64,000 nt of DNA from Clostridiales bacterium. GTDB taxonomy: Bacteria > Bacillota > Clostridia > Monoglobales > WRBX01. The notes below the pieces were generated by a model. The model ran no database searches and had not been told where the DNA came from. It saw only the letters and a program-made list of their open reading frames with translations. This document shows positions 29,332 to 55,170 of the stretch, one piece after another (positions within the stretch are counted from its first letter, which is position 1; every line of letters starts with the position of its first letter). The translations under genes and the position numbers were made by a program. Where the stretch lies: the NCBI GenBank assembly GCA_031261985.1, contig JAISIR010000001.1, positions 72,009-136,008 on the forward strand, in the 5' to 3' direction.

Positions 29332-29337
29332 TAGTGC

Positions 29338-29512: not shown

Positions 29513-31189
29513 TTAATACCACCCGCTGCTTTGAGGGTATAATTCTCTGGCAATTTTTTGCAAGATTTCTAACTTTTTATCATTGAATTTATTTTGTTCT
29601 TCATCATTTTTGTTGTAAAGCTTGGCAAACGTATTAAATCGCTCTTTAAATTCGTTGTCACAATAAATATCATAATGAATTAAATATTTAAATTCGGATA
29701 AAATTTCTTTTAGTTTTTCTTCATCTAGATTTAACGTATAAAAATAAACAAAGCATTCCTCAACAAATTCACAGTTTTGATTTACTTCTGTGATAACTTT
29801 ATCTTTATTATATTCCCGTACGTCGAATTCATCAAATAAAAACAGAAGATATTTAACCGCTTTTTCTTTAAAGTCCCCATCATTTAAAGCCTTTTCTAAT
29901 TTGTCTTTGAGGTTACTATTGGCTATTATATTATCAATAATATTTTTATAAAAAGTGGTTGTGTTTCCAATTATTGAAGCGTCAGTGGTATAGTATCCAA
30001 AATAATATGCATATATAATGAGGAATATATTAGTTAGATTAATATCTATATAATTGTTATTATATAATGAGCGATTATTTAAATCACGTTCAAATTGATT
30101 GTACCCATAAATAGATTTAATTAGATTTTTATCATTATTTTTTATGCACTCGATAATATAATAAAAATAGTTAAATTCTTTAATTTCGTATTTTGTTTTT
30201 GGTAATATTGGCATAAATGTGTGTGGTTTATAATTAACTTTACTGTAGTCTTTTTCTTCGTTAATCCAAAGATAATGAGATTCGTCTAAAACATGTTTTA
30301 ATAGATCATTTTTTTGCTTTTGATTAATCAATTTGTTTTGTGTTATTGAATTGTGTAAATCATAAGAAATATACGCTGTAGAAGCCGTTAATTTTTTTCT
30401 TCTATCAAGATTCTCAAAAATTGCTTCTAGTGCTGTATGCAATATGTGGCCGTTAAATTCGTAATCTAAATTGACAAATTCTATTAAATCAATAGTTTTA
30501 CTGATTATATCATGGTCTTCGTTTAAGTAAATTTTTTTATAATTAGATATTAAATATAATTGTTCAACTAAAAATAGCGCTTCTGATATTTCCTTTGGTT
30601 CTTTACTCTCTATAGCATCGTTTAGCATATCAACAAAGAATTCGCCAGTCTCCAAGCTATGGTTTTTAGACCTTTGTATTGTCTTTTTTATCATATAATC
30701 TCTAATTTCACCTTTGATTTTTTCTTCTGCTCCTAAAATTTCTAGCGTATCTTTTATTAGGTAAATATTGGCTATCACTAATAAAAAGAATATGTAAGCC
30801 ATTGTGTTAAAGTATTGAAACTCTAGGCAAAACCAAGAGGCTAAAACTAAAACAAGCATGACGCTTAACATTATCGCTCGTCTAAAAGGTACTATGTTTT
30901 TATATGAATAGACATATTTTGCAACGGACATTCCATAAAACTTTTTATCGTTAATACTAGAAACTAACGCCAATACACTAGGTGCTAAAACCGCAATTGT
31001 AGACATTACTTGAAAGAGCGTACCATAGATATTAAGCTTATCTTGAATATCGTAGTTGGTATAAAACTTGGCAGGCAAAGTTATAATGCTTTTGTCTACA
31101 CAAAATGGTATAATCGTAATTACAATTAAAAGTATAAAAATACTCCATTGCATAATGCTATAAATTTTTAATTTGCTGATTTTTGTCAT
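29513..31189 (-). CDS. Orphan membrane protein: four N-terminal TM helices plus ~400-aa soluble K/N/Y-rich domain
   Basis: 558-aa uninterrupted ORF, visibly more AT-rich than both flanks. Flanked by a duplicated 73-nt terminator+promoter unit. No family recognised. Confidence 0.7.
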   Translation of the reverse strand: MTKISKLKIYSIMQWSIFILLIVITIIPFCVDKSIITLPAKFYTNYDIQDKLNIYGTLFQVMSTIAVLAPSVLALVSSINDKKFYGMSVAKYVYSYKNIVPFRRAIMLSVMLVLVLASWFCLEFQYFNTMAYIFFLLVIANIYLIKDTLEILGAEEKIKGEIRDYMIKKTIQRSKNHSLETGEFFVDMLNDAIESKEPKEISEALFLVEQLYLISNYKKIYLNEDHDIISKTIDLIEFVNLDYEFNGHILHTALEAIFENLDRRKKLTASTAYISYDLHNSITQNKLINQKQKNDLLKHVLDESHYLWINEEKDYSKVNYKPHTFMPILPKTKYEIKEFNYFYYIIECIKNNDKNLIKSIYGYNQFERDLNNRSLYNNNYIDINLTNIFLIIYAYYFGYYTTDASIIGNTTTFYKNIIDNIIANSNLKDKLEKALNDGDFKEKAVKYLLFLFDEFDVREYNKDKVITEVNQNCEFVEECFVYFYTLNLDEEKLKEILSEFKYLIHYDIYCDNEFKERFNTFAKLYNKNDEEQNKFNDKKLEILQKIARELYPQSSGWY

Positions 31190-31256
31190 TTAATTACCTC
31201 TTTTTTAATGTCGTTGCTAAAATTCTACAATTTTTAGCATAATATACCTTTTTTAA

Positions 31257-31285
31257 ATTATAATCTATTTAATAAATAAAGTCAA
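31257..31285 (-). promoter_or_regulatory. Promoter inside 73-nt unit B (drives the 558-aa orphan gene)
   Basis: Minus strand reads TTGACT, 17 nt, then TATAAT; identical to unit A apart from one spacer base. Confidence 0.6.
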
Positions 31286-31291
31286 TAGTGC

Positions 31292-31324
31292 AAAAAAAGG
31301 TGCCGATTAAGCAATCGACACCTT
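31292..31324 (-). terminator. Intrinsic terminator in 73-nt unit B (ends the RR-HK operon)
   Basis: Hairpin identical to unit A, followed by T7. Confidence 0.7.
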
Positions 31325-35699: not shown

Positions 35700-35722
35700 T
35701 ATGTTAAATTTGTGTTAAATTT
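35700..35722 (-). promoter_or_regulatory. TTAACA-N5-TTAACA upstream element, site d (gene 34986..35606)
   Basis: Plus strand reads TATGTTAAATTTGTGTTAAATTT. Lies 17 nt upstream of TTGATA (35682-77). Confidence 0.55.
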
Positions 35723-35816: not shown

Positions 35817-37475
35817 ATGAATATAAAACATTGCAATTGGCACAGTCATAAAAAATGTTGTAAATGTTGTGTGTGTTGCGCAGGCGGAGGTTCGGGTAGT
35901 GTGGGTCCGACAGGACCGACAGGACCGATGGGACCGACAGGGGCTACAGGCGCGATGGGGCCTAAAGGTGACACAGGTGCGACGGGCGAAACGGGTATAC
36001 AAGGTGTAGAAGGCGAGCAGGGGGTGCAAGGAATCGCTGGTAGCACGGGGCCGACAGGCGAGCGTGGCGAAAAGGGCGACACAGGGGCGAGTGGTGCGAC
36101 AGGGGCTACAGGCGAGCAAGGACTTCAAGGGATTCAGGGCATTCAGGGGATTCAAGGGGTAAAAGGGGACACAGGTGCGTCGGGCGAACGTGGGGAAACA
36201 GGAGCGACGGGAGCAACTGGGCTTCAGGGGATTCAAGGCGAGCAAGGTGTGGCAGGCGCGACGGGTGCTACAGGCGAGCGTGGAGAGAAAGGTGACACAG
36301 GCGACACAGGTCCGCAGGGATTACAAGGAGCCCAGGGTGAGACAGGTCCGCAAGGTATTCAAGGCGTACCGGGCGCGGCGGGCGAAGTTGGCTCGTTAAA
36401 AGGTGCATATGACACTTTAGAAGATTTACAGGCAGCACACCCGACAGGGAATGCTGGCGATGCGTATTATATTCAACCAGACCTATACATATGGGACACG
36501 ACGACGAACTCGTGGCTTAACATTGGCGAAATTGCAGGGCCGCAGGGTGTGACAGGTCCGCAGGGGGTACAAGGCCCGCAAGGTGATACAGGGGCGACGG
36601 GACCTAAAGGCGACACAGGTGCAACTGGGGCGACTGGCAGCACTGGAGCAGCGGGATCGACAGGGGCAACAGGTGCGACGGGGTTGCAGGGCGTTCAGGG
36701 GATTCAAGGTGACACAGGAGCGACAGGCGAGCGTGGCGAGAAGGGGGATACCGGTGACACAGGTGCGCAAGGGGTTCAGGGGGAGCAAGGGATTCAAGGT
36801 ATACCAGGTGCGACGGGGGCGACTGGGGGCATTGGAGCAACAGGTGCGACGGGCGAGAAAGGTGACACAGGCGACACAGGTCCGCAGGGCATTCAGGGTG
36901 TGCAAGGAGTGCAGGGGGTTCAAGGCGTAGTAGGTCCGACGGGACCGACAGGAGCGGCTGGCGAGGCAGGGCCAATGGGACCGACGGGGGATACAGGACC
37001 GATGGGGTCGACAGGTCCGACGGGGACTTGTGATTGTTCGGCTTTAGAAGAGAGAATAACGAATCTGGAAACAGAAATAAGGACAATAGTATCGGAAATT
37101 ACGCCGTCGACAGTGCGGACGGCATTAACTGAGGAGCCGACACTTAGCGGGATAGGGACTAGCGTTATAAACACAGGCGACACCTTTAATTTTTGGGGGA
37201 CGAATGAACTGACTCAGGCGGCTTCGCTTAATAATGGGCAGACATACTATATTGCGACGTCTGACCAATTCCCTGAACTAAAGAACTACCAAGGCTCGCC
37301 GACTATTACCACCATGTGGATAGAGAAGCCCGACGGAACGACTCAGACGGTGCCTGTGTATTTTGATTCGAATGGGATATATTTTACGCCGTCGTCTTCG
37401 ATTAATAATTTGCCAATAGGCACATCGTTTAAGTTTACGCAGGCGTTGATTTTGGATAGCGGGGATATAAGTTAG
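35817..37475 (+). CDS. Collagen-like triple-helix repeat protein (BclA/exosporium-type) with Cys-rich N-terminus and globular C-terminal domain
   Basis: Two long G-X-T/G-X-Q triplet arrays are separated by a ~50-aa non-collagen insert. N-terminus is [13 protein letters not shown]-terminal heptad segment [16 protein letters not shown] precedes a ~130-aa beta-rich domain. Confidence 0.85.
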
Positions 37476-37605
37476 GAAAAATAATTGAGAATTGAGAATG
37501 CAGAATGCAGAAATAATGTAATAAATTTTCACTAACGCTCAAATTTACAAACATGCAAAAAATATTACAAAATAGTTAAATTATTGTTACTTTTGTTGGT
37601 TTATG

Positions 37606-37634
37606 TTGATTTTTATCGAAATATTAGATATAAT
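37606..37634 (+). promoter_or_regulatory. Promoter of small-peptide mRNA, copy 2
   Basis: TTGATT, 17 nt, then TATAAT. Confidence 0.6.
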
Positions 37635-37712
37635 ACTCTCGGTAGTATAATGAAGGGGATATTCAGCTTGTGACGGATTGCTTCCTTGCTCAACAGCAGG
37701 GAGGTGGTGCCG

Positions 37713-37784
37713 ATGAAGAAATTTATGATTGCTTTTGTAATTATACTTATTCTCGCGGCAATCTTTGCTACTCCTGTAATTTAG
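37713..37784 (+). CDS. 23-aa hydrophobic peptide MKKFMIAFVIILILAAIFATPVI (candidate type I toxin, copy 2)
   Basis: Paralog of 23685..23756 with the same SD context (GGGAGGTG), same length and only conservative substitutions. Confidence 0.45.
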   Translation: MKKFMIAFVIILILAAIFATPVI

Positions 37785-37789
37785 AGTAA

Positions 37790-37886
37790 CAAAAACAACC
37801 GTCGCATCTTTGGAAAGGGACGACGGTTGATATATTCACAATAATCCAAGGAAGCTAACCGAAACATTCGGTCTTCCCCTTTTGTT
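37790..37886 (-). ncRNA. Predicted ~100-nt antisense RNA (candidate antitoxin, copy 2)
   Basis: Minus-strand TTGACA-17-TATAAT (37893..37921), and a hairpin CAACCGTCG/CGACGGTTG followed by a T-run on the minus strand. Ends are inferred. Confidence 0.4.
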
Positions 37887-37892
37887 ACTACC

Positions 37893-37921
37893 ATTATACT
37901 ACATAATTAATCATTTGTCAA
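37893..37921 (-). promoter_or_regulatory. Convergent antisense promoter, copy 2
   Basis: Minus strand reads TTGACA (37921-16), 17 nt, then TATAAT (37898-93). Confidence 0.6.
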
Positions 37922-37927
37922 TATTTT

Positions 37928-39081: not shown

Positions 39082-39101
39082 TATGTTAAGTTTGTGTAAA
39101 G
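39082..39101 (-). promoter_or_regulatory. Degenerate TTAACA-N5-TTxACA element, site e (gene 37928..39022)
   Basis: Plus strand reads TATGTTAAGTTTGTGTAAAG. Lies only 7 nt upstream of the -35 of TTGACT-17-TATAAT (39046..39074). Confidence 0.4.
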
Positions 39102-39180: not shown

Positions 39181-41583
39181 ATGCCCCAAGGCGCGACGCA
39201 AACTAACGAGAATCATGATAACTCTGAAATTAAGGCGGTTATAATGTGTGGAGGTGGCGGGACTAGGCTGCGCCCCCTTACTTGTGATATCCCTAAACCC
39301 ATGTTACCTATTATGGGCAAACCTGCGCTGTTGCATATAATAAACCTGCTTAAAAAGCATGGAATTACCAATATAATTATTACTTTGCAATATCTGCCCC
39401 AAGTAGTTATAGATTATTTTGGTGACGGTCGTGATTTTGGCGTGAACATCGAATATTTTATCGAGCGTGTGCCGCTTGGGACGGCTGGCTCGGTTAAGAA
39501 TGCCCAAAGCTCGCTTAGTGATACATTTTTAGTTATAAGTGGCGATAGTGTGACAGATATCGATTTAACGCGCGCGTTAGATTATCATTCTACTAAAAAT
39601 GCCGATGCCACCCTTGTGCTTACCACCGTTGATAAGCCTTATGAGTATGGCGTGGTCGAGACCGAGAGCGATGGGCATATTAATAAGTTCTTAGAGAAGC
39701 CCGATTGGACGGAAGTGTGGACTAACACCGTTAATACAGGAACATATATACTTAAAAAAAGTGTGCTTAATAAGTTCTCGGCTAACGAGATGTTCGATTT
39801 CGCATCCGACCTCTTCCCTATGATGCTTAGTGATGGTGATGAGATTTATGGGTACACAGCCGCTGGATATTGGTGCGATATTGGCGATGCTAAAGCGTAC
39901 GCTATGTGTCATAACGATATATTAGACGGTAAAATTGTGTTGGATATTGATGCCGATTACACTTCGGTTGATTCATCTAAAGCTAATATTCACAAAGATG
40001 CTATAGTAGGCAGCCCGTGTTATATTGGCGAGGGCGTAAAAGTTGGTGCAGGTGCGTATGTATCTGCCTATAGTGTGTTAGGCGATAATTGCAAGGTAGG
40101 CGATAACGCTCGGGTTAACAGCTCTATTTTTCATGATAGGGTAACAGTTGGCGCGTCGACGAGTATAAGTAATTCTATTGTGTGTCAAAATAGCAAGATA
40201 GGAGATTTTACCACGCTGCACGATGCTAGCATTATAGGCGCTAACTGTGTTGTAGATGATATGGTAACGGTTCACCCTTCAATTAAAATTTGGTCGAACA
40301 AGCATATCGAACAAGGGGCGAATGTGCACTCTAACCTTGTATGGGGCGACCATTACACGCGCAAGCTATTTGGCGATGATGCAATTGTAGGCGAGGTTAA
40401 TGTAGATATAACTCCCGAATTTGCCACGCGGCTTGGGACTACCTTTAGCGCGTTATTCAAAGGTGGGCATATAGGTATAGGGTATGGCAGCGGCGGGGCT
40501 TTGTTAATGCTTAAAAATGCCTTTATAGCTGGCTTACTATCTAGTGGTGCCGAAGTGTACGATTTTGATGTGCAAACGCTGCCGACGGCGCGGAATGCTA
40601 TCGCCTTTTACAAGCTAGATGGCGGGGTGCATTTAGCATATAATCCCGATGATGAAAAACCTAAGCTAACCATTAGTTTTTTAGATTCAAACGGTGGTAA
40701 TATAGTTAGGGCTAAAGAGCGAAAGCTAGAGCAAATGTTTAATCGTGAGGATTACACTCGTGCCGAAGCAGAAGAGATTGCCAATGTAAATAAACTGACA
40801 GATTATAATCTGTTTTATCTGCACAGGTTGCTTAATTACGATGACACAGCCAAGCAAATAGACCGCATGCGTATGCCAATTAGTGTAGAGTGTAATAATA
40901 AGGTAGCGTGCGAGCTGGCTAACACCGTCCTTAAAAAGATAGGCGCGGGCGTGTATACATCTGCCGATGAAGTGAATAATATGGTAACAGCGCACATTGA
41001 TGATTTAGGTGAGAATGTTGTTTTATATGACGAAAAAGGGCATAAACTAACGTCGCAGCAATATTTGTATTTGCAATGTAAAATGATACTAGAGTGGGAT
41101 AAAGCTCAAAAAATAGTCGTGCCTATGACGGCGAGCAATTGGATAGACGATTTAGCAGCTAGGCATGGGGCCGAAGTGTTGCGGAGTAAAATTACTAAGT
41201 CAGACATTCAGCAAACGCTATTGCAAAACAAGCTGGATTATCAGTTTAAGCTAATGTTTGATGCTAACTTTATGTTGCTTCAATTGTGCCGATATATGAA
41301 TATAAATCGCATGAAGCTGTGGGATATTGTATCCACCCTGCCGACTATGTATTTTGCAAGCAAGGAGATTGAAGTGGACGACGAAGTGAAATCGCAAGTT
41401 CTAGGTAATTTAGCGCGCAGAGTAGACGGGATATTTGATTCTAGCGAGCTAAACGGTGGGCTTAAACTAGCGCGAGATAACGGTTGGGTAATGGTTAGCC
41501 CAGTTAAGCATACTAATAAGTTTAAAGTTGTAGCCGAGGGCGCAACGCAAGAGATAGCCGATGAGTTAACAGGTATGATTTAG
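39181..41583 (+). CDS. Sugar-1-phosphate nucleotidyltransferase + left-handed beta-helix + phosphohexomutase-like domain fusion
   Basis: N-terminal GGGGTRLRPLT..PKPMLP signature. Hexapeptide-repeat region near aa 270-370. The C-terminal ~400 aa resemble PGM/PMM domains. GAGGAGG SD. Confidence 0.8.
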   Translation: MPQGATQTNENHDNSEIKAVIMCGGGGTRLRPLTCDIPKPMLPIMGKPALLHIINLLKKHGITNIIITLQYLPQVVIDYFGDGRDFGVNIEYFIERVPLGTAGSVKNAQSSLSDTFLVISGDSVTDIDLTRALDYHSTKNADATLVLTTVDKPYEYGVVETESDGHINKFLEKPDWTEVWTNTVNTGTYILKKSVLNKFSANEMFDFASDLFPMMLSDGDEIYGYTAAGYWCDIGDAKAYAMCHNDILDGKIVLDIDADYTSVDSSKANIHKDAIVGSPCYIGEGVKVGAGAYVSAYSVLGDNCKVGDNARVNSSIFHDRVTVGASTSISNSIVCQNSKIGDFTTLHDASIIGANCVVDDMVTVHPSIKIWSNKHIEQGANVHSNLVWGDHYTRKLFGDDAIVGEVNVDITPEFATRLGTTFSALFKGGHIGIGYGSGGALLMLKNAFIAGLLSSGAEVYDFDVQTLPTARNAIAFYKLDGGVHLAYNPDDEKPKLTISFLDSNGGNIVRAKERKLEQMFNREDYTRAEAEEIANVNKLTDYNLFYLHRLLNYDDTAKQIDRMRMPISVECNNKVACELANTVLKKIGAGVYTSADEVNNMVTAHIDDLGENVVLYDEKGHKLTSQQYLYLQCKMILEWDKAQKIVVPMTASNWIDDLAARHGAEVLRSKITKSDIQQTLLQNKLDYQFKLMFDANFMLLQLCRYMNINRMKLWDIVSTLPTMYFASKEIEVDDEVKSQVLGNLARRVDGIFDSSELNGGLKLARDNGWVMVSPVKHTNKFKVVAEGATQEIADELTGMI

Positions 41584-41633
41584 ATTTTGAGTTGTAATAT
41601 GCAAAAAATTTTATTATTAATATTAACAGGCTA

Positions 41634-41710
41634 ACGCGCGAATGAATCGCACCTTAGCTTCTAAAGTTATTTGGATATTTTCGGCGACAAGCTGCCGAAA
41701 ATTTGTTTTT
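41634..41710 (+). repeat. Two-hairpin intergenic repeat, copy R1
   Basis: ..GCGAATGAATCGC..GCTTCTAAAGTTATTTGGAT-ATTTTCGGC-GACAAGCT-GCCGAAAAT-TTGTTTTT. Lies downstream of gene 39181..41583. Confidence 0.8.
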
Positions 41711-41735
41711 ATGATAATTATTTTTGCCAAAAGTA

Positions 41736-41764
41736 TTGACAAAAAAGATAAAATGTGTTAAAAT
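41736..41764 (+). promoter_or_regulatory. Promoter of tRNA-Ser(TGA)
   Basis: TTGACA, 17 nt, then TAAAAT with a TGT extended -10. Confidence 0.55.
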
Positions 41765-41830
41765 TAAAAAAGTGACGGGCGAGTGTTTTTTGCTTTGTGT
41801 CACTTAAAATTATTACAAAAAATTCAATTC

Positions 41831-41917
41831 GGAGAGATGGCCGAGTGGTTTAAGGCGCTAGTCTTGAAAACTAGTGATGCGAAAGCACCGTGGGTTCAAA
41901 TCCTACTCTCTCCGCCA
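41831..41917 (+). tRNA. tRNA-Ser (anticodon TGA), type II, CCA encoded
   Basis: Acceptor GGAGAGA/TCTCTCC, anticodon stem CTAGT/ACTAG with loop CTTGAAA, a long variable arm, T loop TTCAAAT, then G-CCA. Confidence 0.9.
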
Positions 41918-42010
41918 GTCGAGATAGCGTTATAGGAGTTTTTTATTAAGCTCAAATAACGCTCTTTTTTATTTAATTTTTTATATTTTTGCGTAAAATG
42001 TAAAATGTAC

Positions 42011-42039
42011 TTGACATTAAATGTAAAGTATGCTATACT
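42011..42039 (+). promoter_or_regulatory. Promoter of the XRE regulator operon
   Basis: TTGACA, 17 nt, then TATACT. Confidence 0.55.
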
Positions 42040-42057
42040 ATAATTGGAGGTGGATAA

Positions 42058-42273
42058 ATGAAGATAACAAATCAAATTGCGCGTTTTAGAAAAGAGACGA
42101 AGACATCGCAGGCGGAGTTGGCGGCGGCGGTTGGCGTTACGCGGCAGACGATAATTAGCCTTGAGGGCGGAAAATATATTGCGAGCTTGCCGCTAGCGTA
42201 TAAAATTGCGCGGAATTTTGGTAGGACTATTGAAGAAACATTTAATTTGGAAGGAGTTTTTAACAATGAATGA
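42058..42273 (+). CDS. XRE-family helix-turn-helix transcriptional regulator (71 aa)
   Basis: The SQAELAAAVGVTRQTIISLEGGK HTH pattern, with GGAGGTG SD. Confidence 0.85.
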   Translation: MKITNQIARFRKETKTSQAELAAAVGVTRQTIISLEGGKYIASLPLAYKIARNFGRTIEETFNLEGVFNNE

Positions 42274-42706
42274 AGAAAAATTTAGAGTAAAAGTAAAACA
42301 AAAAGCGACGATGTCGTTCGTAATAGCTGCATTGGGGCTGCTTTTGCTAAACGCATCAAGGCTAGATGGCTATTTTGTGCCAGAGAATTTCGGGTATGTG
42401 TCAGGGTATTACCTCGGCGTATCACTCGGGTTTATATTCGGCGGAGTAATACATGGGATAATACTGCTACGCCTGCTTAAAAACGAGACAAAAGTAAAAA
42501 CAAAATTTTTAGAAGCAACTGACGAAAGAAATATCGCAATAAACGAAAAATCGGCAGTTTTAACGCTGTATGTGGGTGTAATCGGTTTGCTTTTCGCAAC
42601 ATTTTTTATGAAAACCGAGCAGGAAATACAAATGCTGCTATATACCGCCTTCGGTCTAGTTTTGGTGTATTTATTTGCTAAAATGTTTTATAATAATAAG
42701 ATGTAA
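42266..42706 (+). CDS. Small membrane protein co-transcribed with the XRE regulator
   Basis: ATG 42266 (MNEEKFRV) is preceded by GGAAGGAG and overlaps the XRE stop by 8 nt. Four hydrophobic spans. The track start at 42206 lies inside the XRE gene and is unlikely. Confidence 0.6.
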   Translation: MNEEKFRVKVKQKATMSFVIAALGLLLLNASRLDGYFVPENFGYVSGYYLGVSLGFIFGGVIHGIILLRLLKNETKVKTKFLEATDERNIAINEKSAVLTLYVGVIGLLFATFFMKTEQEIQMLLYTAFGLVLVYLFAKMFYNNKM

Positions 42707-42796
42707 CGCTAATTGTGGCTAAATATTCACTTTCTCATAAACGTATGATGGCAACGTAGCTCGAGATTTCGCATCGAATATTTGTATTGTATAAAT

Positions 42797-42875
42797 ACAC
42801 TTCGGCGAGTGAATCCGCCGAAGCTTCTAAAGGAAATATGATATTTTCGGCGACAAGCTGCCAAAAATCTGTTTC
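42797..42875 (+). repeat. Two-hairpin intergenic repeat, copy R2
   Basis: CTTCGGCG-AGTGAATC-CGCCGAAG, linker GCTTCTAAAG.., then ATTTTCGGC-GACAAGCT-GCCAAAAAT. Lies between convergent genes. Confidence 0.8.
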
Positions 42876-42937
42876 TATAATAAATTTCTTAAAATCTAAG
42901 TTCTTAATTGAATTTAGTTTTTTTGTTTAGCTTGGCT

Positions 42938-45574
42938 TCACTCTATAACTATTCTTTTGTTAGAATCCCAATTTTTATCATACAAACTAATGCGCATTTT
43001 TTTAATATCGCTAAGTTTAGTAATATTCATATCAGATAACTCAATTCTATATTCATAACCATCTGTTTCTGACACAGAATATTTATAAGTAACAGGTAAT
43101 GATGTAAATTCACTATTTTCGTTGAATCTACCAAAGAACCCGCGATTTTCGTATCTAAAAGTATAATATCTATCATATTTATATGGTTCGTCTAATCCTG
43201 TATCAAAAAGCAAATTTATATAAGGGGTATTCTCATTAGTTGGTTTTAAAATGTCATCGATAACAAAAATATGTAAATATTTACTCTTTATCTTAGCATA
43301 TACTTTTAGACCCGATTCATCATAAATTATATCTTGTAAACCCCATTCCTCATTCCATCTATCACTCGATAATTTTCCATCTATAAGAAGGTAATCTTGA
43401 AAACCATTTTCTTCAAAAGTTGGAAGTGTAAAATTGTTTCGAGAATTTTCTTTAAACTCGTCACTTGATTTTTGAACATTTATACTACCTATATAGTTAC
43501 CTCTTATATTACTGTTATATAAATCATAATTAGCAAATTTAACAAATTTTATATCAGGGTCATCTATGGCACTTTCATTGCTACTCATTTGAATATACAC
43601 ATTCCATTCACTTGGATTTAAATCAAATGGAATCCTTGCGACTAAATTATAAGTTTTTGTAGAGCCACATTTTATTTCTTCAGGATTAATATTAAGAGGC
43701 ATTCTATAATACATACCATCTTTTTCTAGCAACAAATAAGTATTATTAATACCAAGTGGATTACCAAAGCCTGTGTTTTCTACACTAAAACTAAGATGAA
43801 GAGCATCTCCTTGCTTAACGGTGTCAGTCAAGCGGCTTTCTTTTAAAACAAAACGGTAACCTAAACGATTAAAGATATAATCGAAGCCATTATGATTCGC
43901 AAATACTTCATCAATTTCTTCAGTAACAGTTTGCCCTTTCCAATATTCAAGCATGGCTAAATCATGAGTTGTATTCAAATAATTAGTGTGCAACAAGCGC
44001 ATTTCTTTATTAACATTAGTTAAATTAGAATATGTCTCACTGCTATACACTGCCTCGCCACCAAAGAAAGTATTAACGGTAAACGGGCTCATATACTCAA
44101 TATCTTCTTCTCTATTATCGTAAGTTCCCATATCACTAGCAGTGCTTAAAAAGGCATCGTTATATTGACCAAAACGCTTAATCACTTCTTCGTTATTATT
44201 AACATGTAAAAGATAATTTCTATAATCCTTCGGCTCTCTAACAGCTATTTCGGTTAAGGGTGAAGAATTTTCAAACATCGCGTCTAAAATTTGGTTTTCA
44301 TAAGTAACATCATTATATTTACTTGTATGCCATTCGCCATAAGCCCCAATATATCCTGCTTGGTAAACAGATATGACGTCATCGTAATTTTTTAATGTGG
44401 GACCAACTTGTTCGATATGCTCTAGCATGGTGCTAAAATTTCCTGGTTCAGTACCTTCACCTCGCCCATATCTAAATCTGATGATGGTTCTAAAGCCATG
44501 TTTTCTATGCACTTCTAGAATATCATTTAAGGCTTCTATACTATCGTTATTAAGAGCGTTATTTAACGATTGGTCTAAGGTTATTATCAATAAAGACAAA
44601 GTCAAATTATCTTGCTCGGCAGCCCCAAGATTAGAATTAACCCTTGTTAGCAAAGCGTTTTTTTCTTCCTCGTTATAAGTGTTGGGCAACGAAAAAGATA
44701 AGTGTACAAAAAAACCTCTGTTCGGATTAGCATATTTTAAAGTGGATTCGTTATAGTTTAAATCTACTAATTGTGTTTTTGATATATCATAGTCTATTTC
44801 TTTGATTTCTGGTGTTGGAGTTATTGTTGGCCCAGACGATGAACCCCCTTTAAGTGCTGGTGTTGTAGTAGGTGTTGGCAACGGTGTCGGGGTCAGCTCG
44901 GGTTCTGGATACTTCTCACGAATATAGGTATTATTGTCTTCTTTCCAATTATCTTCAATATTTTTAAAAATAACAGCGGCTTCTGCACGTCTAAGATTTT
45001 CACTTGGATTGAAATTGCCCCAGTCGTCGCCCTTCATATATCCAGCCTTAACGCACTTTGCAATATCATATTCTGCCCAGTTAGGTATAAAATTTGCATC
45101 GCTAAATCCGCCTAAAATTTCGTCTTTTTCTGCGTTATTATCAATGCTATTATCATTTTTAGAACAATAAGTAATATAATCAAGCATAACCGCTATCTCT
45201 GCTCTAGTTATCGGCTGTTCCGGACGGAATGTACCATCCTCATATCCTGATAAACTAAGCCAATTGGCAACATAACCTATTGCATCATAATAATAAGCAC
45301 TTTGTGGCACATCCAAAAAATATTTTCTTGTTGTAGCAGCACCCTCGAAATTTATAAGCCTATAAATTAGCAAACAAAAATCGCCACGTCTGATGTTTAG
45401 CTGTGGAGAAAACTCGTTCCAGCCTGTGCCTGTGATAATACCACGGTCGGCATAATCCTCGATGGCATTTTCCGCCCAAGGAAAGTTATGTGTATCGGAA
45501 AATGTTGCAGCATATCCCACGGTATTGCAGGAAATTGCCAAGGCAAGCAGGCTTGAGGTTAAAAGTTTTTTCAA
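42938..45574 (-). CDS. SLH-anchored surface protein with DUF4874/DUF4832-like (glycoside-hydrolase-like) core
   Basis: TTG start at 45574 follows AAGGAGG. A signal peptide is followed by three SLH repeats (FSDTHNFPWAENAI.., FLDVPQSAYYYDAI.., FSDANFIPNWAEYD..), a TPTP linker and a large C-terminal region (ANPNRGFF, GYIGAYGEWH). The gene is AT-rich by eye. Confidence 0.75.
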   Translation of the reverse strand: MKKLLTSSLLALAISCNTVGYAATFSDTHNFPWAENAIEDYADRGIITGTGWNEFSPQLNIRRGDFCLLIYRLINFEGAATTRKYFLDVPQSAYYYDAIGYVANWLSLSGYEDGTFRPEQPITRAEIAVMLDYITYCSKNDNSIDNNAEKDEILGGFSDANFIPNWAEYDIAKCVKAGYMKGDDWGNFNPSENLRRAEAAVIFKNIEDNWKEDNNTYIREKYPEPELTPTPLPTPTTTPALKGGSSSGPTITPTPEIKEIDYDISKTQLVDLNYNESTLKYANPNRGFFVHLSFSLPNTYNEEEKNALLTRVNSNLGAAEQDNLTLSLLIITLDQSLNNALNNDSIEALNDILEVHRKHGFRTIIRFRYGRGEGTEPGNFSTMLEHIEQVGPTLKNYDDVISVYQAGYIGAYGEWHTSKYNDVTYENQILDAMFENSSPLTEIAVREPKDYRNYLLHVNNNEEVIKRFGQYNDAFLSTASDMGTYDNREEDIEYMSPFTVNTFFGGEAVYSSETYSNLTNVNKEMRLLHTNYLNTTHDLAMLEYWKGQTVTEEIDEVFANHNGFDYIFNRLGYRFVLKESRLTDTVKQGDALHLSFSVENTGFGNPLGINNTYLLLEKDGMYYRMPLNINPEEIKCGSTKTYNLVARIPFDLNPSEWNVYIQMSSNESAIDDPDIKFVKFANYDLYNSNIRGNYIGSINVQKSSDEFKENSRNNFTLPTFEENGFQDYLLIDGKLSSDRWNEEWGLQDIIYDESGLKVYAKIKSKYLHIFVIDDILKPTNENTPYINLLFDTGLDEPYKYDRYYTFRYENRGFFGRFNENSEFTSLPVTYKYSVSETDGYEYRIELSDMNITKLSDIKKMRISLYDKNWDSNKRIVIE

Positions 45575-48437: not shown

Positions 48438-48647
48438 CTTTTTTTAATATGTAGTGTGTTCAAATTGCCGACCCGCCCGGCAATTTCTTTGGTTATATCT
48501 TTATTGTATCACAGCATCTATTTTTAGTCAATAGCGGGGTGCTGTTCGTTTTTAAGACTGGTTTTAATTAAATTTGCTATAACTATTGCAATTTATATTG
48601 TTATGTGATAAAATGTAAAAGTATATTGGTATGAAAGGATAATTGAT

Positions 48648-49646: not shown

Positions 49647-49678
49647 AATTACTCTTATTACATTTGCGGCAGCAATAT

Positions 49679-49720
49679 AAAAACGCTTCGGCTCGAAGAA
49701 ATCGGCTAAAGCGTTTTTAT
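49679..49720 (+). terminator. Terminator after the YgjV-like gene 49122..49646
   Basis: AAAAACGCTT...AAGCGTTTTT gives a 10-bp outer stem followed by a T-run. Confidence 0.55.
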
Positions 49721-49729
49721 TATATAAAT

Positions 49730-49918
49730 ACGCTGCGCGCGAATAAATCGCGCTTCGCTCGTCGCAACTGCTTCACGCGGCTAGTTTTTTGCAAAAATCG
49801 CAAAAACGTCGCTTTTGTTCCGCGTTGCTCCTCTTATCCCACAAAACGGAACTCGCGTTTTGTAGGAGCCCTTTTGTTATTTGGATATTTTTGCGGACAA
49901 GCTCGCAAAAATCTGTTT
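49730..49918 (+). repeat. Two-hairpin repeat, copy R3a, carrying a ~110-nt insertion in its linker
   Basis: The 5' half ACGCTGCGCGCGAATAAATCGCGCTTCGCT and the 3' half TTATTTGGAT-ATTTTTGCG-GACAAGCT-CGCAAAAAT are separated by extra structured sequence. Confidence 0.7.
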
Positions 49919-49931
49919 GCATTATACACAC

Positions 49932-50010
49932 ACGCTGCGCGCGAATAAATCGCGCTTCGCTTCTAAAGTAATTTGGATATTTTTGCAGACAAGCTCGCAA
50001 AAATCTGTTT
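49932..50010 (+). repeat. Two-hairpin repeat, copy R3b
   Basis: ACGCTGCGCGCGAATAAATCGCGCTTCGCTTCTAAAGTAATTTGGAT-ATTTTTGCA-GACAAGCT-CGCAAAAAT-CTGTTT. Confidence 0.8.
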
Positions 50011-50043
50011 CTATATATACATATTTAACTATTAACCAAACGC

Positions 50044-53000
50044 TTAATTCTCTAGCACTTCACCTGAGGGAGAGGTTATGTTATACGCTGGTGTGATGTT
50101 ATAAAACGGTACAGAAACTGTCTTGTAATACAAGTAACTTGCTCTTGTTAAGTCTTCTACACCTGTATAAATTGTACCATCAGATTTATACACGCCGCCT
50201 AGTTTATTAAGGTCGCCACTTAAAACGCCAAAGAATGCAGGGGTATCGGTTATATGGGCAAGGGTAGAAGTAGAGCTATCGGCACCTATGATACTTAATT
50301 GAGGGGTAGTTGCAAAACCAACATATCTACCTTCTTTTGCAGCGACGGAAGAAATGTTGCCGCTGACAGTTGAGCTGGTAATGTCAATTGCTCCTGCCTC
50401 GGTTGTCTCTGCCATGCTGATAAGCCCGCCCGCAAACTCTTCATCTGTTTGCGTTACGTCGCCTTCGTACGAAGAATCGGTTATTGATATATTATTTGCG
50501 TACACTTTATTGATAAACCCAGCAGCTTTTGTATTACCAACAACGTGAACGTCATTTAAGATAATATCGCCTAGCGTTGTAAGCTTGTCAAAAAGCCCTG
50601 CTGTTGTTTCTTGGCTAAAGGTTTGAGTGAAGCCATTTAGGGTTATATCCCCAGCTGTTTTTTCGCCAGTGAACATTGCACCTTTACCGTTTAGGATATT
50701 TAGATTGAAGTCGGTCATATTAATATCCCCATCGTACAAGTCCATAGGTGCAAAGCGTGTGTTGCGTGAGTTGTTGTTGGCTACCTCTATATCTACATTG
50801 GTTAGGTTGAATGTGCCTGTTTTAGAGTAGGTGCTGGTAAAGACTGATGCAATAATAGATGAATCAGCAAAATCGATAACTCTAGCAGGCGTTTCAGTTG
50901 TATTAACCAAGTTTTCTACTTTAATATCGCTATTAATAATGTTAAAATCGACATTGGTTTGTGCGTAAATTGAAATTAATGTAGAGCTTAAATCGCCGCC
51001 GAGGGTTGCGTTATAGCCATCAATTTCTGCTCTTGGGACGTTATAATAATATGCTAAAGCACTTTTACCTAAGAAGGCTGTAGGTGCGGAATCAATAGTG
51101 CGAGATGTTCCTCTGACGTTCACATTATTCATTATTAATTTACCAGAATTCATTACTATAATCCCTGCGAAACCGTTGGCGCCTATAGTATGCTCGTCGT
51201 AAGTTGTAGGGCCTGCTTCTGGCGTTTCGGTTTCTTCTGCCGCTTTAACAAAGCCTTTTGGTTGCATTGAATTATCTAATGACGATGCTAAAGCAAAAGT
51301 TTTTAATCTTAGCCATTTTTCGCCACCGAACAATTTATGAGAGTATTCGTGTCCGTTGGCAGCTTCCATGATATCGTAATACCCCCAAAAGTCTGGGCTT
51401 AAATCTGGGAAGGTTATAACGTCCATTTGGTCTATTGCTTCTTTATCGGCTGAGCGGTTTAAGTATACATTTATTAGGCGTGCAGCCTCTGCCCTTGTAA
51501 TGCTATTTTTAGGGCGTGCTGTGCCGTCGTCATAACCCACCATTACTTTGCGTTCGGCTAGAATATTTATACCTCTTGCGTACCATTCGTTTGCAGGCAC
51601 ATCGCTAAAATAGTCGTTGCGTGTAGGTTGATAGCTATCATCTTCGGCAAAACGAGCTAGCATGGTTGCAAATTCTGCGCGGGTTACACTTTGTTTAGGC
51701 CTAAACTCGCCGTCTTCGTAACCTTGAACAACTTTTGCATTAGATAGTGTTTCGATAGATGATGTACTCCAAATATCTGCCTCAACATCTGGGAAGGTAA
51801 CTATTTTACTATAGTAAGCAGTTCGGCTTTGTTCGGTTAAAAGGTTAAATATAATAGTAGAAAGTTCTTGGCGAGTAAGGTTGTTGTTAGGACGGATTTC
51901 ACCATCTTCGTAACCTGTTAGGTATTGAATATGCTCTACATCGTTAAGCTCGGGTGAAGGGCTAGGTTTAGGGCTTGGAACAGCACTTGGGCTAGGCGAT
52001 GGTTTTAGTGAAGGACTAGGTGATGGTCGCTTACCGCCTGAAGGTGCCTTTGCCGATGGAGAAGGGCTTGGGTCGGGCGAAGGTGATGGTGAAGGTGATG
52101 GACTTGGTGAAGGACTTGGTTCTGGTGAAGGGCTAGGTGATGGTTCTGGCGAAGGTGATGGTGAAGGACTAGGAGATGGCTCGGGCGAAGGAGATGGTTC
52201 TGGTGAAGGGCTAGGCGGTGGTGGAGGGTTGATATAAATATCGTTAAATTGCATAGTTCCACCAGACTTAGATAAATATCTTGCAAACGTTCCATCGTCG
52301 GCGAATGTGCGGCTAGAAGGGGTGCTTATATTACCGGTAATTATCATATCGTTTACTATAAAATCGCCTGTGTTGCCGCCCAAGTAAGAAGCAAAGGCAG
52401 CTGAGCCACCAAGGTTTTCACCTGTAATTGTTATGTGCTCAAAAAGGGCTGAATTAGCCTGGTTATATCCGATTAAACCTGCTGTTGCAACAAAATTTGC
52501 ATCAGGAGCAGAAACGCTTCCCATAATATCTATATTACGCGCAGTTATATTTTGGGCAGTAGTATAGTAGAATAAACCTGCCCAACCAAGGTCTCCAGTG
52601 TATTCTATATCGTCGATTTGTATATTAGTACAAACTCCGCTGCCGACAAATCCTGCAGAATAGTTAGCAGATTTCCCTGCATTACCAAAAACTCTTATGG
52701 TTTTTGCATCAAAATTATAGCAGTTTACATACTCTATAAACCCTGACCTAGCAAAGTTTTTGCCGTTCATTGTAATGTTCTCAAATTTTGGTGTGACACT
52801 TGCGCTGTTGCTGCCAAAGTAGTTATCCATAAATCCATGGGTATTTAGCGTTCCATCATTGATGGTAACGTCTACATTTTTGACGGTAAAATCGGGGCAA
52901 TTTGCATGGAATACAAAACCGCTACCAGGGATTTCGTCACTTTCGATTGTAATTTCGTTAAAATTTGCTTTATTATTACGCATTGCATATATAAATCCGC

Positions 53001-55170
53001 CATAGGCTCCACGAGCAGGGTCATAGATATTGGCTATATTTTTGCTTGTATTTTTTACATTAATATTGGTTGCTTCAAAATTACCACCGTTACCTGTATA
53101 ATACACAAACCCTGCGCCATTATCCATGCTACATTCAATATCGACTTCGGCTATAGTGATATTGTTATTAGTGCCATCAAAGGCAGATATTAACCCGGCA
53201 TTTTGCAATGCTGTAGAAGATGAAAGTATATTGCCTTTAACTGTAATGTAACTTATATTAGTATCACCGCAATTTGAAATAACATATGCAAGCCCTGCTT
53301 TACCTAAATTATTTCGATTGATATCGACATTTGATATATCTACACTTTTAAAACGTACTATTGCGTCAAAAACCCCAGCACCAGTGTGGTCAGGCGAGTC
53401 GTTCGTTGTTGTAACATTAACATCCGAAACGGTCAGCGTAGCCTCGGAGCCTTGACCTGCAAGGTAGCTAGCCACACCCATTTTACCAGAAGTTTCGCCG
53501 CTTATATCTACATCGTCAATATTAATATTCCCTGTAGCTATTGCATAATTAAAAAGTCCGGCAGATATTGCATACGAGCTATTCGGAGTTTCGGCGCTGC
53601 CTTCAACATTAATGCCTTGAATATCAAGCGAGCCTAACGTAGTGCCAAAACTGCCAGCAAGCGCAGAATTGCCATAGCTTGATGATTTAACGTTTATATC
53701 ATAAAAACTTACGCTATCTGCATTACCTATTCTATACGCAACACCATTCGATGAATTTCCATAGATTTCTGCAAAAACGTTTAAATCCGTTATTTCTACG
53801 CTCTGAAAAACTGTGTTTAATGAATTGTTTAAATCGGTAATGATTCCCGCTGCGCTGCTAGCACCAGCAATTTCGACGGTTGAAGGTTCGTCGCCAACAT
53901 CGGTGCCGACAGACGAATTTGTAATAGAAATATTGCCTTGTGCGCCGCCTAAAAATGTTCCGCCAGCAGTTATTCCGCCTGCATAATACATAGAAGCAAC
54001 CTTACCACTTGTAAAGTGGGCTGCTTGAATCTCGAGATATTCGCTTTTATCGCTAAGACCGCCAACAATACCGCCTGCAAAGCCAGAGGCTATAACATTG
54101 CCATCGGCAGAAAGAGTGTTTAGGCTAAGCGTGCCTTCTTTGCGGATATTGCCTATAATTCCGCCTGCATTTGAGGCGTATCGAGTATATTCGCTTGCAG
54201 TTTCTGGATTAACGCTTATTATATTGGCATTTGTAACGGTAGAATTTATTACATTACCAGTGCTTTGAGCCACAATACCTCCGCTAAATGCAACGGCATA
54301 AGTAGGAACGTAAGATGCTCTAAAAGTAGTGCCAGAAAGTGTGTTTTTTACGTAATACTCACTATCGGAATTATAGCTAAAGACAAAGGGAGCGGTGACT
54401 TCTAAATTTTGAATATTACCTCCAGATTTACCAAAAAGCCCGGCAAACGTTTGCCTGCCATTTAGTTTATCGGCAGCTTCTTGCCATTTTTCGTTATTCT
54501 GGCTGTTCATATATTCTAGAGGGGTTGGGTCGGTTGAACCAACTGGCATGCTAGGAAGAGCGGTAGGTGTACCCGTTGGCTTAGCTGTGACATTATCGTT
54601 CTTCTCGAAAGATACAAGACCGCTTATCTTTTTATCGTTGCCGTCGAAAGTGCCTAGGAATGGGTTGGTGTCTGTGCCGATAGGCGTCCAAATATTAGAC
54701 ACTTCGCCAGAATAGATTAATTTATGTAGGGCGGTAGTAATATCGGATTGAGCGGCGCTAACGGTGCTTACACCTGCTAGGTCAATATCTGCACCTAAAG
54801 TAATTTGCCAGCCCTCAAAGCTATTTTCGCCAGAATTTACGATTTCGGCTATTGCTCTTAGCTCTGCAGCTGTGGTAATGGTTATATTTTTAGTTGAAGC
54901 GTTGTTTAGGAGAGTAGTTTGCATTGTACTTAATGCTGTGGCATCTACCGCTAGGCGTGAGCCGACGGTGATATCGTCAGCCTCGATACCACTTAGATGT
55001 GAATGCGCAGCTTCAGTTTTTGTTGCAGTTAAGGGGTTTAGCGATGAAACTATAACCGCAATTAAAGTAAGCGCGAGAGTTCTTTTAAAAATTGCACTTG
55101 TGAAGATAGATTTTTTTGAATTGAGTTTTTTAGAATTGAGTTTTTTACAACCCGAAAAATTTGTTCTCAT
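50044..55170 (-). CDS. Giant (about 1,700 aa) surface protein: beta-helix-like repeat region, Pro/Ser linker, three central SLH domains, second repeat region
   Basis: Preferred start is ATG 55170 (MRTNFSG), 6 nt after AGGAGA; the track start at 55212 lies inside the promoter. Has a signal peptide and degenerate G/N/I-rich repeats. The (PSPSPE)n linker near 51950..52240 is followed by three SLH repeats (YLTGYEDGEIRP, FPDVEADIW, FSDVPANEWY). Confidence 0.8.
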   Translation of the reverse strand: MRTNFSGCKKLNSKKLNSKKSIFTSAIFKRTLALTLIAVIVSSLNPLTATKTEAAHSHLSGIEADDITVGSRLAVDATALSTMQTTLLNNASTKNITITTAAELRAIAEIVNSGENSFEGWQITLGADIDLAGVSTVSAAQSDITTALHKLIYSGEVSNIWTPIGTDTNPFLGTFDGNDKKISGLVSFEKNDNVTAKPTGTPTALPSMPVGSTDPTPLEYMNSQNNEKWQEAADKLNGRQTFAGLFGKSGGNIQNLEVTAPFVFSYNSDSEYYVKNTLSGTTFRASYVPTYAVAFSGGIVAQSTGNVINSTVTNANIISVNPETASEYTRYASNAGGIIGNIRKEGTLSLNTLSADGNVIASGFAGGIVGGLSDKSEYLEIQAAHFTSGKVASMYYAGGITAGGTFLGGAQGNISITNSSVGTDVGDEPSTVEIAGASSAAGIITDLNNSLNTVFQSVEITDLNVFAEIYGNSSNGVAYRIGNADSVSFYDINVKSSSYGNSALAGSFGTTLGSLDIQGINVEGSAETPNSSYAISAGLFNYAIATGNINIDDVDISGETSGKMGVASYLAGQGSEATLTVSDVNVTTTNDSPDHTGAGVFDAIVRFKSVDISNVDINRNNLGKAGLAYVISNCGDTNISYITVKGNILSSSTALQNAGLISAFDGTNNNITIAEVDIECSMDNGAGFVYYTGNGGNFEATNINVKNTSKNIANIYDPARGAYGGFIYAMRNNKANFNEITIESDEIPGSGFVFHANCPDFTVKNVDVTINDGTLNTHGFMDNYFGSNSASVTPKFENITMNGKNFARSGFIEYVNCYNFDAKTIRVFGNAGKSANYSAGFVGSGVCTNIQIDDIEYTGDLGWAGLFYYTTAQNITARNIDIMGSVSAPDANFVATAGLIGYNQANSALFEHITITGENLGGSAAFASYLGGNTGDFIVNDMIITGNISTPSSRTFADDGTFARYLSKSGGTMQFNDIYINPPPPPSPSPEPSPSPEPSPSPSPSPSPEPSPSPSPEPSPSPSPSPSPSPSPDPSPSPSAKAPSGGKRPSPSPSLKPSPSPSAVPSPKPSPSPELNDVEHIQYLTGYEDGEIRPNNNLTRQELSTIIFNLLTEQSRTAYYSKIVTFPDVEADIWSTSSIETLSNAKVVQGYEDGEFRPKQSVTRAEFATMLARFAEDDSYQPTRNDYFSDVPANEWYARGINILAERKVMVGYDDGTARPKNSITRAEAARLINVYLNRSADKEAIDQMDVITFPDLSPDFWGYYDIMEAANGHEYSHKLFGGEKWLRLKTFALASSLDNSMQPKGFVKAAEETETPEAGPTTYDEHTIGANGFAGIIVMNSGKLIMNNVNVRGTSRTIDSAPTAFLGKSALAYYYNVPRAEIDGYNATLGGDLSSTLISIYAQTNVDFNIINSDIKVENLVNTTETPARVIDFADSSIIASVFTSTYSKTGTFNLTNVDIEVANNNSRNTRFAPMDLYDGDINMTDFNLNILNGKGAMFTGEKTAGDITLNGFTQTFSQETTAGLFDKLTTLGDIILNDVHVVGNTKAAGFINKVYANNISITDSSYEGDVTQTDEEFAGGLISMAETTEAGAIDITSSTVSGNISSVAAKEGRYVGFATTPQLSIIGADSSTSTLAHITDTPAFFGVLSGDLNKLGGVYKSDGTIYTGVEDLTRASYLYYKTVSVPFYNITPAYNITSPSGEVLEN

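Follow-up and report, generated by a model that had tools for sequence, protein, structure and literature searches.

Structure and covariation of a two-hairpin intergenic repeat

The stretch analysed here, a window of 64,000 nucleotides (nt) of contig JAISIR010000001.1 from a Clostridiales bacterium, contains between its genes a family of repeats of ~80 nt, each unit of which consists of a first hairpin (hairpin 1), a single-stranded linker GCTTCTAAAGTTATTTGGAT, a second hairpin (hairpin 2) and a YTGTTT tail. The genes near these units are mostly concerned with the cell envelope (S-layer-type SLH proteins, an LRR protein, ManC/PMM and CvpA). The stem of hairpin 1 is GC-rich and variable in sequence, and its loop reads AATGAAT, AGTGAAT or AATAAAT; the initial annotation of this DNA had recognised the loop as conserved, with a consensus, (A)A(T/A)GAAT(C), that proves slightly too tight. 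The linker follows the plan GCT(T/G)CTAAAG and then ~8 nt ending in (G)GAT, and hairpin 2 occurs as two main types, ATTTTCGGC GACAAGCT GCCGAAAAT or ATTTTTGCG GACAAGCT CGCAAAAAT. The short copies, designated R1, R2, R3b, R4 and R5, share the left boundary AAAYACGC, at which the upstream conservation of the units ends.

The hairpin-2 pattern GATATTTTYGSNGACAAGCTNSCRAAAAT matches the window six times, at 41674, 42840, 49884, 49976, 58199 and 60773, always on the plus strand, against a chance expectation of 0.00 matches (100 shuffles), and a repeat finder independently groups the same copies (families D5-D7 and D13). A covariance model comprising both hairpins was built from the five short copies and recovers these seeds at 88-105 bits (E-values of 1e-18 to 1e-22); run with filters off over the whole window, it finds nothing beyond the five seeds and both halves of the segment at 49730-49918. 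Based on the pattern matches, the model and the empty shuffles, the six full copies previously listed are real. The stems quoted for them are likewise exact, these being CTTCGGCG/CGCCGAAG in R2, GCGCG/CGCGC in R3 and CAATGACG/CGTCATTG in R4 (where the full stem extends to 9 bp, GCAATGACG/CGTCATTGC) for hairpin 1, and ATTTTCGGC/GCCGAAAAT versus ATTTTTGCG/CGCAAAAAT for hairpin 2.

The pairing of the stems was counted on the model-derived alignment of nine matches, in which 91.3% of the cells form standard pairs and 11 of the 19 pairs are changed on both sides. None of 500 shuffles reaches any of five measures of pairing and covariation, and controls in which the 3' partners were slid by 1-3 columns give 35-45% paired cells and 0-3 covarying pairs. 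Four of the eight hairpin-1 pairs shared by R2 and R4 differ between them, all with compensation; the two main types of hairpin 2 differ in three pairs, again all compensated, so that the hairpin-2 stem switch is compensatory as had been claimed, the description "double" being wrong by one pair. Stem sequences turn over whereas loops and linker hardly vary, a pattern contrary to that of simple decay. When copies were folded singly, z-scores of -3.1 to -5.0 were obtained for four of the five short copies and of -1.2 for R3b. These results support structure-preserving evolution of both hairpins, as opposed to decaying duplicates, and bear out the initial view that the stems covary beyond chance. 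A conformational switch between the 3' arm of hairpin 1 and the 5' arm of hairpin 2 was also considered and rejected, the alternative pairing amounting to 7 bp in R2 and being absent from R4 and R3.

Individual copies, neighbouring genes and distribution

R1 (41626-41711, plus strand) is recognised by the model at 88 bits (E 4e-18) and folds with a minimum free energy of -27 kcal/mol (z -3.8). Its hairpin 1 (41629-41659) has the outer stem GGCTAA..TTAGCT, the inner stem GCG/CGC and the loop AATGAAT, and is followed by the linker TCTAAAGTTATTTGGAT (41660-41676) and by hairpin 2 (41677-41702), being ATTTTCGGC GACAAGCT GCCGAAAAT with the tail TTGTTTTTA. The unit is located ~43 nt past the stop of the plus-strand ManC/PMM gene (39181-41583), ahead of the promoter of tRNA-Ser(UGA). 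R2 (42795-42877, plus strand; 90 bits), with the hairpin-1 stem CTTCGGCG/CGCCGAAG and one C.A mismatch in hairpin 2 that equals a G.U pair on the reverse strand, lies between convergent genes, 88 nt from a DUF2178 gene (plus strand, stop at 42706) and 60 nt from an SLH/DUF4832 gene (minus strand, stop at 42938).

The next locus, also between convergent genes, carries a stack of three to four units, the largest in the window, which follows the stop of a minus-strand gene for a 1722-amino-acid SLH protein. Its first full element, R3a (49728-49921, plus strand), had been taken for a simple copy; it is instead a composite, which the model splits into two partial matches at 49728-49790 (28.5 bits) and 49844-49921 (46.7 bits). 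In the left unit, a hairpin 1 identical to that of R3b is accompanied by one further hairpin and by TTTTTGC/GCAAAAA, a stem resembling hairpin 2, and in the right unit a variant hairpin 1, ACAAAACG/CGTTTTGT, is followed by GTTATTTGGAT and a canonical hairpin 2, ATTTTTGCG/CGCAAAAAT. Since 9 nt of linker, TCTAAAGTA, are replaced by ~117 nt carrying the TTTTTGC/GCAAAAA and ACAAAACG/CGTTTTGT stems, the segment 49730-49918 reads as two variant units. R3b (49930-50013, plus strand; 97.8 bits), with GCGCG/CGCGC in hairpin 1 and ATTTTTGCA/CGCAAAAAT in hairpin 2, ends, on its right, ~30 nt short of the SLH gene stop at 50044. A possible partial unit on the plus strand at 49668-49720, ACGCTTCGGC..AAATC..GGCTAAAG, is weakly indicated by 19 nt that match the left end of R5 at 95%; it sits inside a conventional A-tract/T-tract terminator hairpin after ygjV and is terminator-like on the minus strand. 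The SLH surface protein itself (50044-55212, minus strand) contains a long PSPS/PEPS linker and has no close homologue, its best matches reaching 29-39% identity across no more than 14% of the query, and a search for its paralogues returned none from the home genome.

R4 (58153-58236, plus strand; 99 bits), in which the hairpin-1 stem GCAATGACG/CGTCATTGC is combined with the linker variant GCTGCTAAAG and a canonical hairpin 2, is situated ~23 nt past the stop (58260) of a minus-strand LRR_5 gene and directly precedes the minus-strand promoter (58133-58106) of a GT2 gene. R5 (60727-60810, plus strand; 105 bits) has the hairpin-1 stem GGCGG/CCGCC, with CGC/GCG as outer stem, and canonical linker and hairpin 2. 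Its site is a divergent intergenic region, with 28 nt between the unit and the cvpA ATG (60839), which leaves no room for a promoter, so that R5 falls within the cvpA 5' untranslated region (UTR). Upstream of it, TTGCAT (60694-60699) and TATAAT (60717-60722) are separated by 17 nt, and a transcript from such a promoter would have the first base of the unit as its 5' end.

The truncated copy described at 29380-29440 is less secure. The plus-strand segment 29378-29445, ACGCTTCGACGCGAGTGAATCG ... ATATTTTTGCAG, in which the linker and the 3' half of hairpin 2 are missing, shows two collinear matches of 11-12 nt (to R2, R5 and R3b) and is missed by the covariance model even with filters off; for this reason it is treated as a probable decayed remnant. 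It is located ~70 nt past the stop of the minus-strand gene 29513-31189, before the conventional terminator of that gene. The 558-amino-acid genes beside the remnant and beside R4 are unrelated, which disposes of a gene duplication carrying the repeat along. A solo hairpin, AAATTGCC GACCCGCC CGGCAATTT, without hairpin 1 or linker, is found on the plus strand at 48462-48486 in a divergent promoter region.

A diverged seventh copy, R6, was recovered by the covariance model 5.3 kb beyond the window at the end of a Logan short-read contig (L006 of SRR14710920), which starts inside R5 and shares 3,222 identical nt with the window. R6 reads TTCTAAAGTTATTTTGTGC AAATTGCC GACGTGACT GGCAATTT GTTTAAT on the minus strand; its linker is intact, and six of the nine hairpin-2 pairs differ from the consensus while all nine still pair. 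The stem and the GAC start of the loop are the same in the solo hairpin as in hairpin 2 of R6. The conserved unit begins ~3 nt after the stop of the plus-strand gene tsaE, so that the inverted copy follows a plus-strand gene; the uniform plus orientation reported before holds within the window and fails beyond it.

Taken by locus, six of seven adjoin the 3' end of a gene, and five of seven (R2, the R3 cluster, R4, the remnant and R6) follow, at ~3-70 nt, the stop codon of a gene that runs in the reverse sense of the unit. The window contains 35 minus-strand genes versus 16 plus-strand genes; if the units follow the upstream gene in reverse sense, the local predominance of plus-strand copies is explained by this gene-strand bias.

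Statements on the distribution of the repeat within the home genome rest on ~70 kb. With Rfam 15, a search that the initial annotation had proposed, only two tRNAs reach the gathering score in the whole window, and no relevant match was obtained at E-values up to 10 over 41500-43000 (R1 and R2); the repeat has no Rfam family. Larger collections were scanned with the hairpin-2 pattern GATATTTTNNNNGACAAGCTNNNNAAAAT, which is too strict in that R6 would not match it. The GTDB genomes and the JGI metagenomes yielded five matches each, all of them chance matches within coding sequence with non-complementary arms; IMG/VR yielded 0 matches (and eight chance matches to a linker-based pattern), and the plasmid and phage collections none. 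The covariance model detected no copy in ~30 kb of the nearest relatives, which show 47% identity, and neither the three translated open frames of the repeat nor the open reading frames (ORFs) called across its copies matched anything among 5.8 billion proteins at E-values up to 10. In the same collection, the best homologue of the ManC/PMM protein of the host is 47% identical.

Strand sense, transcript ends and rival explanations

The initial annotation saw in hairpin 2 with its T-rich tail a resemblance to an intrinsic terminator, a GC-containing hairpin that runs straight into a U-rich tract on the transcribed strand. In favour of this, a scan with a terminator consensus flags hairpin 2 on the plus strand in R1, R4 and R5. 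Against it stands the polarity of hairpin 2, in which the 5' arm carries the U-run and the 3' arm the A-run, the reverse of ordinary terminators in the window, where the A-tract is 5' and the T-tract 3' (for example AAAAGCACTT..AAGTGCTTTT at 7444-7472, and also 4186-4210). Moreover, an efficient plus-sense terminator inside the cvpA 5' UTR would silence cvpA, so that the position of R5 argues against hairpin 2 being one. The same scan flags hairpin 1 on the minus strand in R2 and R4, and hairpin 2 of R2 also scores as terminator-like on that strand; the R3 copies were not flagged by it. The flagged hairpins are the only terminator-like sites in their intergenic regions.

Read on the reverse strand, the unit shows the GC-rich hairpin 1 with GYGTATTTAT or GTTGTTTTC behind it. 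In five of five copies the minus-sense RNA of this hairpin is the more stable form, by 1.8 to 7.8 kcal/mol, and isolated mismatches of the plus sense are all of the A.C type, which become G.U pairs in the minus sense. Hairpin 1 on the reverse strand is suggestive of a better terminator than hairpin 2. Two other functions of the unit were considered and set aside: a promoter formed by the tail, since -10-like hexamers follow most copies with no usable -35, and a CodY or Spo0A box, resemblances to which in hairpin 2 are not conserved across variants.

The interpretation favoured here, tentatively and with slightly less confidence than would make it probable, is that the repeat represents a lineage-specific REP/TRIT-like module for transcript ends, acting as a bidirectional terminator or as a 3' stabiliser. 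The unit would be transcribed as part of the mRNA end of a neighbouring gene, and its RNA would fold into two hairpins joined by the conserved single-stranded linker, the main working sense probably being the reverse complement of the orientation in which it was originally described. In that sense, the RNA would read (from 5' to 3') AAACAG, the complement of hairpin 2, AUAUCCAAAUAACUUUAGAAGC, the complement of hairpin 1 and GYGUAUUUAU or GUUGUUUUC, and the GC-rich hairpin 1 with its U-rich tail would serve as an intrinsic terminator or as a barrier to 3'-exonucleases. In the plus sense, hairpin 2 followed by CUGUUU may provide a weaker stop, and with stops in both senses a unit could serve convergent genes from either side. 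The fixed loops and linker may be contacted by a trans-acting factor, at which their conservation hints. The positions after stop codons, the stack of three to four units behind the gene for the 1722-amino-acid S-layer-type protein and the inverted R6, which follows a gene of the other strand and fits transcription better than replication, are consistent with this interpretation.

Several observations weigh against it. Termination is deduced from sequence alone, the U-rich tails are short and interrupted, and the intergenic DNA is very AT-rich, so that T-rich flanks are partly expected by chance. The positions and orientations refer to about seven copies in ~70 kb of one genome and are statistically not significant, most intergenic regions hold a gene end anyway, R1 follows its plus-strand gene in the "wrong" (plus) sense, and R5 is located in a divergent region within a 5' UTR. 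The covariation was measured on few and related sequences, in an alignment fitted to the structure of the model, although its signal is large even so. Furthermore, a pure terminator role leaves unexplained that conservation is higher in the loops and linker than in the stems.

Among known systems, the closest in kind are the TRIT terminators, of which 147 copies have been described; these are restricted to Mycobacterium, conserved in sequence and structure, mostly bidirectional and placed at gene termini, and an additional binding factor has been proposed for them (Gardner et al. 2011, PMC3152330). The present repeat is similarly lineage-restricted, multi-copy, located at gene termini, usable from both strands and suspected of involving a factor. 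However, a TRIT unit forms one long GC-rich palindrome that overlaps the stop codon, its centre lying ~8 nt ahead of it (PMC3152330), whereas the repeat combines two different hairpins and a linker, ~3-90 nt after stops, with unrelated sequence and in a different phylum. Considering that architecture, position and host all differ, membership of TRIT was rejected and the resemblance is one of kind only. A dual role has a precedent in REP325 of E. coli, which is both a terminator and an mRNA stabiliser (bioRxiv 10.64898/2026.03.23.713779). REP/BIME elements of Enterobacteria and Pseudomonas share with the repeat short structured palindromes in 3' UTRs and convergent intergenic regions, tandem clusters, compensated stems and terminator or stabiliser roles. 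They are built on a single imperfect palindrome with a GTAG-like 5' head, often occur as inverted pairs (REPIN) and have a cognate RAYT gene. In the repeat, there is no GTAG-type head, no inverted REPIN pair occurs, clustered units stand in direct order and the two hairpins are unlike each other, and the REP/BIME palindrome class was rejected on these grounds. Ordinary bidirectional terminators likewise occur between convergent genes or past the last gene, with a hairpin and a U-rich tail on both strands, but they are single hairpins of independent origin, whereas the units are homologous, possess two hairpins and carry reversed tracts in hairpin 2.

A somewhat unlikely alternative, although the one that survives best, is that the repeat is a selfish non-autonomous mobile element, whose hairpins would be read as single-stranded DNA by a transposase encoded elsewhere (RAYT/HUH-type or other) and whose location at gene ends would mark where insertions are tolerated. 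It would account for the confinement of a multi-copy repeat to one lineage, for the tandem cluster with its rearranged and composite units, for the decayed remnants and solo hairpin, and for the orientation of six of seven copies on one strand, as in strand-specific HUH elements; short-read contigs also break within copies, L006 ending, in window coordinates, at 60779 (R5) and ~69355 (R6). On the other hand, the units contain no terminal inverted repeats, their sole inverted repeats being the two hairpins, and no consistent target-site duplication, AT-rich flank matches being confined to R1 and R5. The ~50 window ORFs scanned against Pfam include no transposase, RAYT or integrase. An associated RAYT/TnpA-like gene, which the initial annotation had suggested seeking elsewhere in the genome, was thus looked for, and not found, in the 64-kb window, and no RAYT (Y1 HUH transposase) gene was seen in the ~70 kb available of a larger genome. 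The many compensated stem changes around fixed loops and linker speak for long-term selection and not for a recent burst, and the inverted R6 behind a gene of the other strand fits transcription over replication.

Correia/CREE, BOX, RUP and ERIC elements are transcribed together with adjacent genes and are able to end or stabilise transcripts, and they resemble the units as intergenic repeats of ~80-150 bp with stable folds, but they have terminal inverted repeats and target-site duplications; a MITE was rejected because neither of these two features is found. IS200/IS605-derived elements carry two similar subterminal hairpins bound by one TnpA, whereas here hairpin 1 (GC-rich, loop AATGAAT) and hairpin 2 (GACAAGCT, ATTTTCGGC) are unrelated and no TnpA is encoded in the window, so that such a derivation was rejected. 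A selfish mobile origin is compatible with the clusters, composites and remnants, and it leaves room for a host function.

Returning to RNA, it is possible, if unlikely, that the repeat is a new class of structured RNA, in which the hairpins would present the invariant linker and loops to a dedicated RNA-binding protein or to a complementary RNA. It would then tag the ends of mostly cell-envelope mRNAs for factor-dependent termination, stabilisation or localisation. A still less probable proposal regards the units as paralogous small RNAs, or as RNA decoys for a binding protein, in which the loops and the linker, GCUUCUAAAG or as complement CUUUAGAAGC, would form the functional surfaces and the hairpins would supply stability and a terminator. 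Loops and linker that are better conserved than stems are typical of functional RNAs, the TTGCAT-17-TATAAT of R5, with a perfect TATAAT, is placed for a start on the unit's first base, the unit ending in hairpin 2 and a U-rich tail, and the lack of an Rfam match would make this a new family. However, scans and inspection reveal no comparable promoter at the other copies in either sense, the upstream sequence is not conserved past AAAYACGC, and units that lie no more than a few tens of nt from stops in both orientations relative to their neighbours fit UTR elements better. The candidates named at the outset (a REP/MITE-like element, a protein-recognised terminator module or a small RNA) delimit the right space.

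It is very improbable that the repeat is instead a signal at the DNA level, such as a site for a chromosome-organising or replication protein or a cruciform, oriented to replication. That six of seven copies share a strand, and that the excess of minus-strand genes is compatible with a single replication direction, would suit such a signal, but if units follow the upstream gene, the bias in gene strand accounts for that of the units. The half-sites of the palindrome co-change to unrelated sequences (ATTTTCGGC, ATTTTTGCG, AAATTGCC), which a sequence-specific dimeric DNA-binding protein would not tolerate, and the strand asymmetry between A.C and G.U points to RNA. Integron attC sites, imperfect palindromes with a GTTRRRY core that end each cassette of a co-oriented array next to an integrase, were also rejected, as the genes that separate the copies are ordinary chromosomal ones, run in both orientations and reach 5 kb in length, the scanned ORFs include no integrase, and the unit ends in YTGTTT and not in GTTRRRY.

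The ANTAR-domain gene at 17713-18087 (minus strand), beside carA, might encode an antiterminator with the units as its targets, an idea that can hardly be entertained. Substrates of such proteins are dual hairpins with variable stems and conserved terminal loops, these being hexaloops with A1 and G4 in both hairpins; their stems are short, their linker measures 5-12 nt (14 nt abolished function), and they are located in 5' leaders with a terminator overlapping the second hairpin (PMC3369931). The repeat resembles them in its tandem hairpins, conserved loop residues, covarying stems and several sites per genome, and its hairpin-1 loop begins with six bases, AAUGAA, that include A1 and G4; but its loops are of 7 and 8 nt, loop 2 (GACAAGCU) is without G4, the stems measure 8-10 bp with a linker of ~17-18 nt between them, no alternative or overlapping terminator is seen and six of seven units stand at the 3' ends of genes, so that this anatomy largely refutes the idea and ANTAR substrates were rejected as a class.

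Further features of the window and significance for the host lineage

A number of other features of the window were recorded. The motif TGTWAH-N5-TGTWAH, a direct hexamer repeat with an 11-bp period which we take to be a WalR/YycF-type response-regulator box, matches nine times, always on the plus strand, against 0.75 expected (5108-5124, 11343-11359, 24599-24615, 35702-35718, 39084-39100, three overlapping matches in 55257-55295, and 60644-60660). Six of these sites share the longer motif TTATGTTAAATTTGTGTTAAAT. They lie near cell-envelope genes, with a four-hexamer array upstream of the 1722-amino-acid SLH gene and one box ~100 nt upstream of a gene (35817-37475, plus strand) for a 552-amino-acid collagen-like protein of GXY triplet repeats, which has a local GC content of 50% versus ~39% for the window. 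Another Logan contig (L012) breaks within the TGTTAAAT-box motif at window position ~5129.

A unit of ~370 bp is duplicated at 23535-23903 and 37562-37927 (77-90% identity). Each copy comprises a plus-strand promoter, a 5' UTR hairpin over the GGAGG ribosome-binding site, an ORF for a hydrophobic peptide of 23 amino acids (23685-23756, MKKFIIAFVIILILMAFFATPVV; 37713-37784, MKKFMIAFVIILILAAIFATPVI), a shared hairpin terminator and then a convergent minus-strand TTGACA-17-TATAAT promoter; it has no Rfam match, and its layout looks like that of a type I toxin-antitoxin locus. A cassette of 73 nt occurs at 29298-29370 and 31252-31324 (99% identity) downstream of two adjacent, non-paralogous genes and contains, on the minus strand, a terminator hairpin followed by a TTGACT-17-TATAAT promoter. 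The 1310-amino-acid ORF at 12600-16532 (minus strand), a neighbour of the ANTAR-domain gene, is a carbamoyl-phosphate synthase large chain fused to a C-terminal diaminopimelate epimerase domain. In the nearest relative, contig L021 (JGI 3300042612) carries tandem arrays with 63-nt and 72-nt periods at 8158-9528 and 20853-21740, in gene-poor stretches, with units 60-92% identical; these are probably repeat-protein coding sequence, unrelated to the two-hairpin repeat.

Families of structured intergenic repeats are common, and they shape transcript ends, mRNA stability and genome plasticity; to our knowledge, they are well described in a few model groups only (REP, BOX, Correia and TRIT). Judged by its sequence and predicted structure, the family described here is lineage-specific and belongs to neither REP/BIME nor TRIT nor MITE elements, though by its proposed function it is of the same kind as the first two. 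Its host, which encodes SLH-domain surface proteins, is a deep-branching uncultured member of the Bacillota, and the pattern is unusual in that stems vary freely while loops and linker are fixed, so that a new module of RNA-protein recognition is conceivable. The two-hairpin repeats break short-read assemblies of this host and could mark the lineage. If a factor does read the fixed parts, the repeat would represent a simple new case of sequence-specified, factor-assisted formation of transcript ends.

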